DNA of 64,000 nucleotides from Candidatus Latescibacterota bacterium. Its GTDB lineage: Bacteria > Latescibacterota > UBA2968 > GCA-2709665. The DNA is taken from NCBI GenBank assembly GCA_965219455.1, contig OZ244744.1, positions 608,001-672,000 of the forward strand, read 5' to 3'. This document shows positions 43,681 to 55,513 of the stretch, one piece after another. A program made the position numbers and the translations under genes. The notes beneath the pieces were generated by a model. That model was not told the origin of the DNA, searched no databases, and worked only from the letters and a program-made list of their open reading frames with translations. Numbering within the stretch: position 1 is the stretch's first letter; each line of letters starts with the position of its first letter.

Positions 43681-43738
43681 AGTGTCCCATCCCGGAAATA
43701 TGTCACCATTCGGCAAGCTATTTCCGGGACAGAACACT
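43681..43738. mobile_element. MITE family A (58 bp)
   Basis: 20-bp TIRs (17/20); further copies at 47590 and 111. Confidence 0.75.
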
Positions 43739-43739
43739 A

Positions 43740-43901
43740 ACAGTCCGTTGATAAAGTCGCTCTGCAGGCGAGGCCGAGTCATTGTGGCCGAAGACAAGGC
43801 GCGCAACCGAGTCGAATCGAGCGATTCGGCGAGGGAGCGCAACGCAGTATTTCGACCGCAAGGGCCGGCCGTAGCCCGGATGGACTTTTTCAACGGGCTG
43901 T
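43740..43901. mobile_element. MITE family B (162 bp)
   Basis: TIRs acagtccgttgataaagtc and gactttttcaacgggctgt (17/19), with TA on both flanks. Confidence 0.78.
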
Positions 43902-44944
43902 TAAGCCAGCGTTTCGTCGATTACGATGACGGTCTTTACGGAGTCTCCGGCTTCGGCCACGGTCTGAAATCCGACGGCGGTCTCTTCCAGGGGAAAACGG
44001 TGAGTGACGAGTTTTTTCGCGGTCACCACCCCGCGGCCAACGAGGCCCAGGGCTTCCACGGTGTCCGGGGGACCGCACGAATAGCTGGTGATAAGGGTGA
44101 TGTCTCTGGAATACAGATCGTAAGGTTCGATCGCCAGCGTCCGGCCGGGTTCGGAAGGGGTGAATAGAAGCACGGTACCGCCCACGCCCACCGAGGAGAA
44201 TCCCGCCTTCATCGCCGTCAGCGTGCCCGGACCGACCACAACCAGGTCGGCCATGTCCCCATCGGTGGCGGCGGCGACGGATTCGGTCAGATCGTCTCGA
44301 GTGACGTCGATGCCGACGTCGGCCCCGAGTTCAAGGGCTTTTCCCAGCCGGTAGGGCACCATGTCCGCCGCAATCACGGTGGACGCGCCGTAGTGCCTGG
44401 CGACCAGGGCAAGAAGCTGCCCCATTATGCCCATGCCGATGATCAGGACGCGGTCTCCCCGTTGCATTCGGGCGCGGCGTTGCAACGCCTGTACCGCGCA
44501 AGCGGTCGGTTCGACGAGAGCGCCGTCTTCGAGGGAAAGCGGGGCCGGAAGTTTCAGGGTATCGGTACTGAGGTTGATGCCGGGCACGCGGACGAATTCG
44601 GCGAGGCCCCCGGGGTCCAGCGCGGAGGCCTTCCAGGTAGGACACATTGAAAAATGCCCCCGGAGGCACAAACGGCAGTTCATGCAGGGGGCATGATGGT
44701 GAACAAAGACGCGCTCACCCGGTGAGAAACCGGTGGCTTCGGAGCCAATGTCGACTATAATCCCGGCGGGTTCGTGCCCGAGAACGATGGGCGCCTTGCG
44801 CCGAACGTACCACGGCAGGGTATCGCTGGTGCAAATGCCGCAAACCGCCATTTTGACCAGGGCGTCTTCAGGTCCGATTTCAGGGATCGGTTCTTTTTCG
44901 ATGCGGATGTCGCCGTAGTCGTACAGACGGGCTACACGCATCAT
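43901..44944 (-). CDS. Zinc-binding dehydrogenase (MDR family)
   Basis: CGICTSD, GHEPAG, CMNCRLC...C and GMGIMG. Confidence 0.9.
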   Translation of the reverse strand: MMRVARLYDYGDIRIEKEPIPEIGPEDALVKMAVCGICTSDTLPWYVRRKAPIVLGHEPAGIIVDIGSEATGFSPGERVFVHHHAPCMNCRLCLRGHFSMCPTWKASALDPGGLAEFVRVPGINLSTDTLKLPAPLSLEDGALVEPTACAVQALQRRARMQRGDRVLIIGMGIMGQLLALVARHYGASTVIAADMVPYRLGKALELGADVGIDVTRDDLTESVAAATDGDMADLVVVGPGTLTAMKAGFSSVGVGGTVLLFTPSEPGRTLAIEPYDLYSRDITLITSYSCGPPDTVEALGLVGRGVVTAKKLVTHRFPLEETAVGFQTVAEAGDSVKTVIVIDETLA

Positions 44945-54620: not shown

Positions 54621-54650
54621 CCCTCGCTCCTGGAAGGGATTGGTATTCAA

Positions 54651-55058
54651 GCAAGCGGGCCTGTAAGCCGAGTTCTGTCGTCCGGCGCAGTGCGCCCGAC
54701 GGATGGCCATTTATCTGGGACGCCGGTTGCCCGGCGCCTCTACGCAGCCTACCCGAGCGTAATATTGAGACGGGCCGCCTCTTCGCTCCTATTTGGCCTT
54801 GCTCCGGATGGGGTTTACCGTGCCGCTCCCGTCTCCGGGAGCGCGGTGGGCTCTTACCCCACCGTTTCACCCTTGCCCGCAACGAAACCGTAGTTTCGCC
54901 CGCTGGCGGTCTGTTCTCTGTGGCACTTTCCTTCGGGTTGCCCCGCCTGGGAGTTACCCAGCATCCTGCCCTGTGGAGCTCGGACTTTCCTCACCCATAA
55001 CAGCCCGGATGGACTCTTTCAACGGGCTGTTATGGGCGCGGCCATCCGGCCCGCTTAC
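54651..55058 (-). ncRNA. rnpB: RNase P RNA, bacterial type A
   Basis: Minus strand GAGGAAAGTCC, AGTGCCACAG, GGGTGAAACGG, GGTAAACCCC...GAGCAAG and ACAGAACTCGGCTTA; complementary P1 ends. Confidence 0.96.
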
Positions 55059-55090
55059 CTGAATTGTGGAACCGTGAACCGCTCATCGGC

Positions 55091-55513
55091 TCACGATTTG
55101 GGTTTTAAAGCAGTTGATATTCCAAGATTGGCCAGGCGGTCGGCGTGTTGATTCTCCGTACGCAAGACGTGGCGGATCCGGAAGAGGTCAAACGACCCGG
55201 CAATTTCACGGGCGCTTTGATACAACGGCAACAGCTTCTCGTTCTTTACTTTGTATTGGCCGTTCATCTGCCGGACGATCAATTCGCTGTCTGAAATGGC
55301 GTTGACACGCGTCTTACCCAGTTTCCGGACGATCTCCAACCCCTTGATCAGGGCCTTGTATTCCGCAACGTTGTTGGTGGCATTGCCGAGAAAACCGGAA
55401 TATTCCTCAATTACCTCGCCTTCGCATTCAACCCGGACGCCGATGCCGGCAGGGCCGGGGTTTCCCTTTGCCGCACCGTCGACGTAGAGCGTGATGACGC
55501 CCGTGCCGGCCAC
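55091..55513 (-). CDS. rnhA: Ribonuclease HI family protein
   Basis: DGAAKGNPG, TNNVAEY, DSELI and RTENQHADRLAN. Confidence 0.9.
   Translation of the reverse strand: MAGTGVITLYVDGAAKGNPGPAGIGVRVECEGEVIEEYSGFLGNATNNVAEYKALIKGLEIVRKLGKTRVNAISDSELIVRQMNGQYKVKNEKLLPLYQSAREIAGSFDLFRIRHVLRTENQHADRLANLGISTALKPKS

Follow-up and report, generated by a model that had tools for sequence, protein, structure and literature searches.

A MITE very probably landed in helix P3 of the RNase P RNA gene (rnpB) of this Candidatus Latescibacterota bacterium, leaving a shrunken remnant that now forms most of P3 in the genome under study, G000. The window, that is, the whole stretch of 64,000 nucleotides analysed here, belongs to this metagenome-assembled genome, which consists of one contig of 5.84 Mb and has a contamination estimate of 8.49%. 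The evidence comprises the homology of the P3 insert to a MITE family, its TA flanks, the presence of both empty and fuller states of the site in relatives, and the hairpins predicted for them.

Results

The rnpB gene of the window and its P3 insert

The rnpB gene (Table 1) has RNase H-like and zinc-ribbon genes upstream, an OMP decarboxylase gene downstream, and two tRNAs nearby. Searched with Rfam/Infernal, it scored 307.7 bits (E 8.6e-100) against RF00010, above the curated gathering score of 100, and covered the full model (1-367 of 367), placing it within this family. GAGGAAAGUCC is present after P3, as type A requires (the + strand at 54982-54992 reads ggactttcctc). The two P3 arms, cccataacagcccg (54994-55007) and cgggctgttatggg (55023-55036), are exact reverse complements over 14 bp, and in the Infernal alignment the P3 loop exceeds the family model by about 23 bases. 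The predicted RNA fold of P3 has an energy of -27.3 kcal/mol, whereas 200 shuffled sequences averaged -9.4 (z = -7.08) and never equalled it.

Positions 55002-55032 are identical at 30 of 31 bases to positions 43873-43903, the right end of a full-length MITE in the same window; 100 dinucleotide shuffles never yielded two matches. The borders TA-ACAG...CTGT-TA enclose both the P3 insert (55000-55030) and the full element (43740-43901). In its own orientation the insert reads along the + strand, antisense to rnpB. The original prediction, made from the sequence of the window, had described the gene with its perfect stem beside GAGGAAAGUCC, the MITE match and the TA-acag...ctgt-TA ends; each of these was recovered here, and the comparison with Rfam that it had proposed showed an oversized P3.

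Table 1. Positions in the window of rnpB, the parts of its helix P3, and the reference MITE.
Feature	Position	Strand	Basis or remark
rnpB, bacterial type A RNase P RNA, 410 nt	54648..55057	-	RF00010; sole rnpB match in genome
Helix P3: perfect 14-bp stem (55036-55023 pairs with 55007-54994), 15-nt loop 55022-55008	54994..55036	-	
Universal GAGGAAAGUCC, P4 5' strand	54982..54992	-	One base (54993) 3' of P3
MITE-derived insert, 31 nt: acagcccg (8 nt, left terminus) + 23-nt right end gatggactctttcaacgggctgt	55000..55030	+	Match to 43873-43903, congener alignment
TA left of insert, one copy of duplicated target	54998..54999	.	
TA right of insert, second copy of duplicated target	55031..55032	.	
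Full-length MITE, 162 bp, reference copy for the P3 insert	43740..43901	+	Ends acagtccgttgataaagtc / gactttttcaacgggctgt; TA at 43738-43739 and 43902-43903

Since repeats can mislead assemblers and the genome is metagenome-derived, we considered whether an assembler had wrongly joined a repeat to rnpB, or whether the palindrome arose by chance, and regard both as extremely improbable. A contig of public run X1 (record 8, 1402 nt), which may represent the source sample of the window, covers 54967-55200 with 0 differences, so the insert is also seen outside this assembly. Related inserts occupy the same position in 13 separately assembled congeners, and the 30/31 match was reproduced in none of the 100 shuffles. 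Misassembly, which the original prediction had named as grounds for its own rejection, is not indicated. Other X1 joints across P3 (cccaacaggg and cccgataggg) carry short P3s like those of two neighbouring genera, and are co-occurring relatives, not variants of the G000 population. Contigs of the RNA run X15 match rnpB exactly over 54667-54992 and end at the P3 base, leaving 55000-55043 uncovered, most likely owing to a branch in the assembly graph at that point; in RNA run X17, the sole piece over 55001-55032 continues into another MITE copy.

The MITE family

The genome-wide 31-mer search that had been suggested as a check uncovered an abundant family of TA-flanked inverted repeats. BLAST of the MITE against G000 gave 107 HSPs and 36 loci matched end to end, plus shorter forms, and the family was recognized as a MITE by its many copies and its small element of 161-163 bp without coding capacity. 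The terminal inverted repeats, acagtccgttgataaagtc and the reverse complement of the right end, acagcccgttgaaaaagtc, agree at 17 of 19 positions by eye, and the termini are conserved across copies. Duplication of the target is evident in G000 from a T at -2 in 60 of 62 left ends and an A at -1 in 61 of 62, with TA following 65 of 74 right ends; the insertion sites show a palindromic preference, Y-TA-R-G (Y at -3 in 48/62, R at +3 in 67/74, G at +4 in 58/74). Judged from the sequence, TA flanks combined with inverted ends are the signature of a TA-duplicating MITE. The usual left end of the family is acagTccg, and its repeat is CAGNCCG, often imperfect. Internally deleted derivatives with 54-60 nt between the termini (58-66 bp as matched) and shared junctions are common in G000, which also carries isolated right ends.

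The family occurs in all 15 genomes of this genus and in none of 16 genomes of five neighbouring genera. In public genomes its right end was found at more than 112 places, mostly in records labelled as Candidatus Latescibacterota MAGs, and in some that carry other labels. Empty orthologous sites exist at P3, in G001, G011 and the 16 outgroup genomes, and at the site of the reference copy (43738), in 10 of 14 congeners. A search for an autonomous partner with the same ends, carried out in G000 alone, found none, and none of the five IS630-type (DDE_3) loci in this genome carries the MITE ends. Five long terminus pairings were rejected as partner; they enclose a DDE_Tnp_1_4 transposase, a dehydrogenase, a group II intron reverse transcriptase, an enolase-type enzyme and a MutL-family protein. 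ARAGORN lists 54 tRNA/tmRNA genes in G000, and every one of them is more than 200 nt from the nearest MITE match.

Several further observations were made on the family and its host genome. The reference copy at 43740-43901 is 98-99% identical to copies in G003, G007, G011 and G013 and at most 93.5% identical to copies within G000, while the flanking genes are about 80-93% identical among these five genomes; this pattern of identities suggests recent movement of the element between species. At one locus (L153, G000:C1:4658350-4660459), a MITE left end is separated from the remainder of the MITE by a group II intron reverse transcriptase (RVT_1 + GIIM), and at another (L151, G000:C1:1641895-1643908) a DDE_Tnp_1_4 transposase lies beside a MITE fragment; both look like mobile elements nested in MITE copies. 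At G000:C1:5304725 two MITE copies abut with a common TA (..aacgggctgc-TA-ACAG..), the left flank being the right end of the other copy. ARAGORN also listed two 360-nt tmRNA genes in G000, on the same strand and 2.2 kb apart (G000:C1:2870202-2870561 and 2872398-2872757).

P3 in related genomes

P3 length, measured from the P2 strand to GAGGAAAGUCC, varies widely within the genus (Table 2); all 16 outgroup P3s were read, and 6 of the 16 were measured. MITE sequence occupies the same P3 TA in 13 of 15 genomes of the genus, compared to none of the 16 outgroups, and the remaining 2 of 15 are empty. Occupation of P3 thus coincides with presence of the MITE family. The empty site anticipated in the original prediction was found in the outgroups, in G001 and in G011, and its refuting case, that of MITE-less relatives with the same P3, did not arise, as the 16 outgroups all have a short P3 and none has the MITE. 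For the same reason, short outgroup P3s without the MITE, we rejected the reverse possibility that the MITE was born from rnpB.

Table 2. Length and content of helix P3 in the genus and in five neighbouring genera (a slash marks the junction).
Genomes	P3 length (nt)	P3 content
16 outgroup genomes (five neighbouring genera)	11-13	CCC, 4-5-nt loop, GGG
G001, G011	12	Empty
G002, G004, G006, G007, G008, G010, G014	25	TA-tcagtccg/ctgg-TA, 12-nt scar, 10-bp stem, UCCG loop
G000	44	31-nt form
G005	43	31-nt form
G009	45	31-nt form
G013	68	59-nt element, both ends present
G003	133	123-nt element, interior unlike that of G012
G012	177	Full 166-nt element

Outside P3, rnpB is 93-99.5% identical within the genus. 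A single hairpin on the CCC/GGG base was predicted for every P3 variant, with energies ranging from about -3 kcal/mol (empty) to -96.5 kcal/mol (G012). The P3 copy of G012 is 93-97% identical to the other end-to-end copies in that genome, and at most 96% identical to copies in G001 and G009. The stem of the seven-species clade with the 12-nt scar has 93.3% of its cells paired and one two-sided pair change; because 84 of 500 shuffles match this signal, selection on the new stem is not demonstrated. A 20-nt rnpB 5' strand was also compared with metagenomes; of the 70 loci matched, two proved to be rnpB genes. The first belongs to an unrelated organism, and the second has a 25-nt P3 like that of G007; the other 68 were rejected as chance matches in GC-rich DNA.

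The rnpB locus of G010 has an additional feature (L021). A full-length copy of this MITE occupies the interval from an upstream hairpin to the start of rnpB, at about 12 to 180 nt from the 5' end of the gene, and is absent from the sister species G014, so that this locus took a second, separate insertion. The upstream copy probably lies in the rnpB promoter or leader.

Origin of the 31-nt insert

We propose that the ancestral P3 was very small, with a 3-bp stem and an apical loop of 4-5 nt, and that a TA in this loop was the entry site of a non-autonomous, TA-duplicating MITE of about 162 bp. As the ends of the element are complementary, the transcript of the insert would fold as a hairpin stacked on the old CCC/GGG stem, lengthening P3 and leaving the P2/P4 core unaffected. 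In G000 the residue would be 31 nt, made up of 8 nt of one terminus joined to 23 nt of the other, and 11 of the 14 P3 base pairs would be supplied by the insert (8), the TA copies (2) and an a/t flanking pair beside CCC/GGG (1). Insertion would have come first and deletion second, and the shortening would most likely have been a deletion between direct repeats of CAGNCCG, one in the left terminus and the other about 30 nt from the right terminus.

A deletion between CAGNCCG repeats yields exactly TA-N-CAGNCCG/GATGG...CTGN-TA, where the slash marks the junction. Of the 73 CAGNNCGGATGG sites in G000, three (rnpB and two unrelated loci) carry the junction TA-N-CAGNNCG/GATGG, which the P3 of G005 has as well. 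The recombination between two agcccg repeats in the original prediction is plausible, but the repeat is better described as CAGNCCG, often imperfect, than as a fixed agcccg. The left arm reads acagCccg in place of the acagTccg of the family, and could therefore derive wholly from the right subterminal repeat.

Alternatively, a copy already shortened to 31 nt, comparable to the 59-nt form, could have inserted directly, with no deletion inside rnpB; we consider this unlikely. There are three 31-nt copies with the same junction in G000, of which two, including the one in rnpB, are flanked by TA on both sides, and the third, at 2987397, has TA on its left and CA on its right. Forms of 54-60 nt with common junctions also recur in G000, and short forms recur in G013 too, where the 59-nt form in P3 has three other end-to-end copies (97, 93 and 86% identity), so short forms move or arise repeatedly. 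However, of one terminal repeat the 31-nt form has just 8 nt left, which a transposase would probably not recognise, and CAGNCCG lies exactly at both breakpoints, which predicts recurrent deletion at this junction. The 31-nt form of G009 and the full copy of its close relative G012 have in common a rare TTTATC variant and a tcggg flank, a likeness that favours deletion within P3 itself, at least for that lineage. The MITE-derived interpretation of P3 in the original prediction is supported, with in-situ collapse and insertion of a short copy inseparable under it.

One event or several

We estimated a maximum-likelihood tree from about 3.3 kb of rnpB flanks with P3 removed (21 rows, none dropped). 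G013 was basal; G012 (full element), G001 (empty) and G009 (collapsed) formed a group with 100/100 support; and G005 (31-nt form) fell within the 12-nt-scar clade, which has 7 other members, as sister of G002 (100/100). The history of insertion probably involved several events across the genus, and not one insertion followed by one collapse. Insertion of a MITE at the P3 TA and loss of its interior, as originally predicted, are supported by the forms of 166, 123, 59, 31 and 12 nt in congeners, but the history was probably not the single event that the prediction invoked.

We lean toward recurrent targeting, in which the P3 loop or the rnpB locus was hit repeatedly by insertion or conversion, and the P3 states do not form one decay series. 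The position of G005 argues for this, because a 12-nt scar cannot regrow to 31 nt and the reverse path needs about five identical parallel deletions. The P3 copy of G012 is 97% identical to its closest copy in the same genome, compared to flanks that are about 80% identical between clades, indicating that the G012 insertion is much younger than the genus. The interior of the G003 element differs from that of G012, and the G000 insert is inverted relative to those of G003, G005, G009, G012 and G013, the species with enough sequence left for orientation to be read. The sibling copies of the G013 59-nt form and the further full element about 12 nt upstream of the G010 rnpB are consistent with this reading as well. 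At a control locus, 43738, the same TA is occupied in G003 (L234, a remnant), and inverted copies are found about 30 nt away in G010 (L241) and G014 (L242). Occupation of common or neighbouring sites may be a habit of this MITE family, as judged from the one control locus examined.

Other evidence weighs against repeated hits. There are 157,485 TA sites in G000 for fewer than 100 copies, and it is very improbable that chance alone would bring the element to the same TA more than once, unless that site is a strong hotspot. Target preference was rejected as the cause of such a hotspot, as the occupied P3 sites, a/g/t-TA-t-g, match Y-TA-R-G at +4 and +5 only. The flank TA-t-ggg is common to all occupied P3 sites, which also fits a single ancestral insertion, and G000 and G005 have in common a rare GGACTCTT variant; their likeness despite the inversion would fit a flip of the loop between perfect arms. 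Recombination between species could also move P3 alleles. The rnpB gene itself is too conserved, at the level of identity given above, for a tree of its own: without P3, the G005 gene is 96.7% identical to that of G002 and 96.5% identical to that of G009, values too close to separate.

Discussion

Probable RNase P function with an enlarged P3

Each of the 31 genomes has one rnpB, and rnpA is present in all five genomes tested, including G012 and G003. PIN_5, the family that contains the protein-only HARP enzymes, was found in none of five genomes tested. The rest of the rnpB RNA scores normally against the family model. With a sole rnpB, rnpA present and no HARP-type substitute found, the insert would be transcribed within a working RNase P RNA. 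P3 is directed away from the active site in bacterial holoenzyme structures, which would explain its tolerance of inserts.

Joining these observations, we tentatively offer a broader reading, although we think it somewhat more apt to fail than to hold. One MITE family would have used the apical loop of P3 repeatedly as an insertion site, on at least two and perhaps five or six separate occasions among the 15 species. In G012, RNase P would work with a 166-nt transposon hairpin in its catalytic domain, either as an RNA of about 545 nt or, if the hairpin is cut like the intervening sequences of rRNA, as a natural two-piece RNA held by P1-P3. The transposon ends would then have been the raw material for rebuilding a P3 of normal length after an ancestral reduction to 3 bp.

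Comparison with known systems

Palindromic repeats in structural RNA genes are already on record. A Rickettsia palindromic element (RPE) lies within the tmRNA gene of R. bellii (PMC1458961). The case is similar to ours in that a short, abundant, palindromic mobile repeat sits inside an essential structural RNA gene without destroying it. Unlike the RPE, the element studied here is in P3 of RNase P RNA, belongs to another phylum and has TA-flanked inverted ends, making the RPE a functional analogue only; moreover, a single site here shows, across 15 species, inserts of decreasing size from the full element down to a 12-nt scar.

Other systems resemble P3 in different respects. Repeats within cyanobacterial rnpB were reportedly described by Vioque in 1997, and are said to be tandem heptamers in helix P12. 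They too are genome-wide repeats tolerated in the RNase P RNA gene, whereas here the insert is a transposon in P3 and not a set of tandem heptamers in P12. The intervening sequences of 23S and 16S rRNA, which are cut out by RNase III to leave a fragmented rRNA, are likewise additional hairpins at helix tips of an essential RNA that vary among close relatives, but the transposon origin of the P3 hairpins is explicit, given the TA duplication and the genomic copies. In its terminal inverted repeats, TA flanks, palindromic Y-TA-R, size of about 160 bp, high copy number and internal deletions, the family resembles MITEs of the IS630/Tc1-mariner type; in contrast to these, no transposase with matching ends was found at the five DDE_3 loci in G000, so that the TA target is the sole ground for the superfamily assignment. 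Our search of the full-text literature, in which subscription journals are mostly not included, found no description of a MITE in rnpB or of a transposon in P3.

Implications for annotation and for RNase P biology

Where a large element occupies P3, Infernal begins rnpB inside the MITE, at 1665-2052 of L144 (G012) and 1501-1865 of L030 (G003), and the true 5' end lies further upstream, by about 190 nt in G012 and about 145 nt in G003. This misplacement arises because the MITE right end (..CCCGGAUGGAC..) mimics the 5' strand of P1/P2 (..GCCGGAUGGCC..), a mimicry that could also permit an alternative fold. Covariance-model annotation therefore misplaces the rnpB 5' end in genes with a large element, and such genes will be annotated as truncated or shifted.

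The genus provides a natural series of insertions and deletions in the catalytic domain of a universal ribozyme, with P3 lengths of 12, 25, 43-45, 68, 133 and 177 nt in sister species and 93-99.5% identity in the rest of the RNA. This series shows how much length P3 tolerates, and its members are ready-made constructs for tests of P3 length. It also captures a bacterial structural RNA in the course of gaining a transposon-derived expansion, while the donor family is still active in the same genomes.
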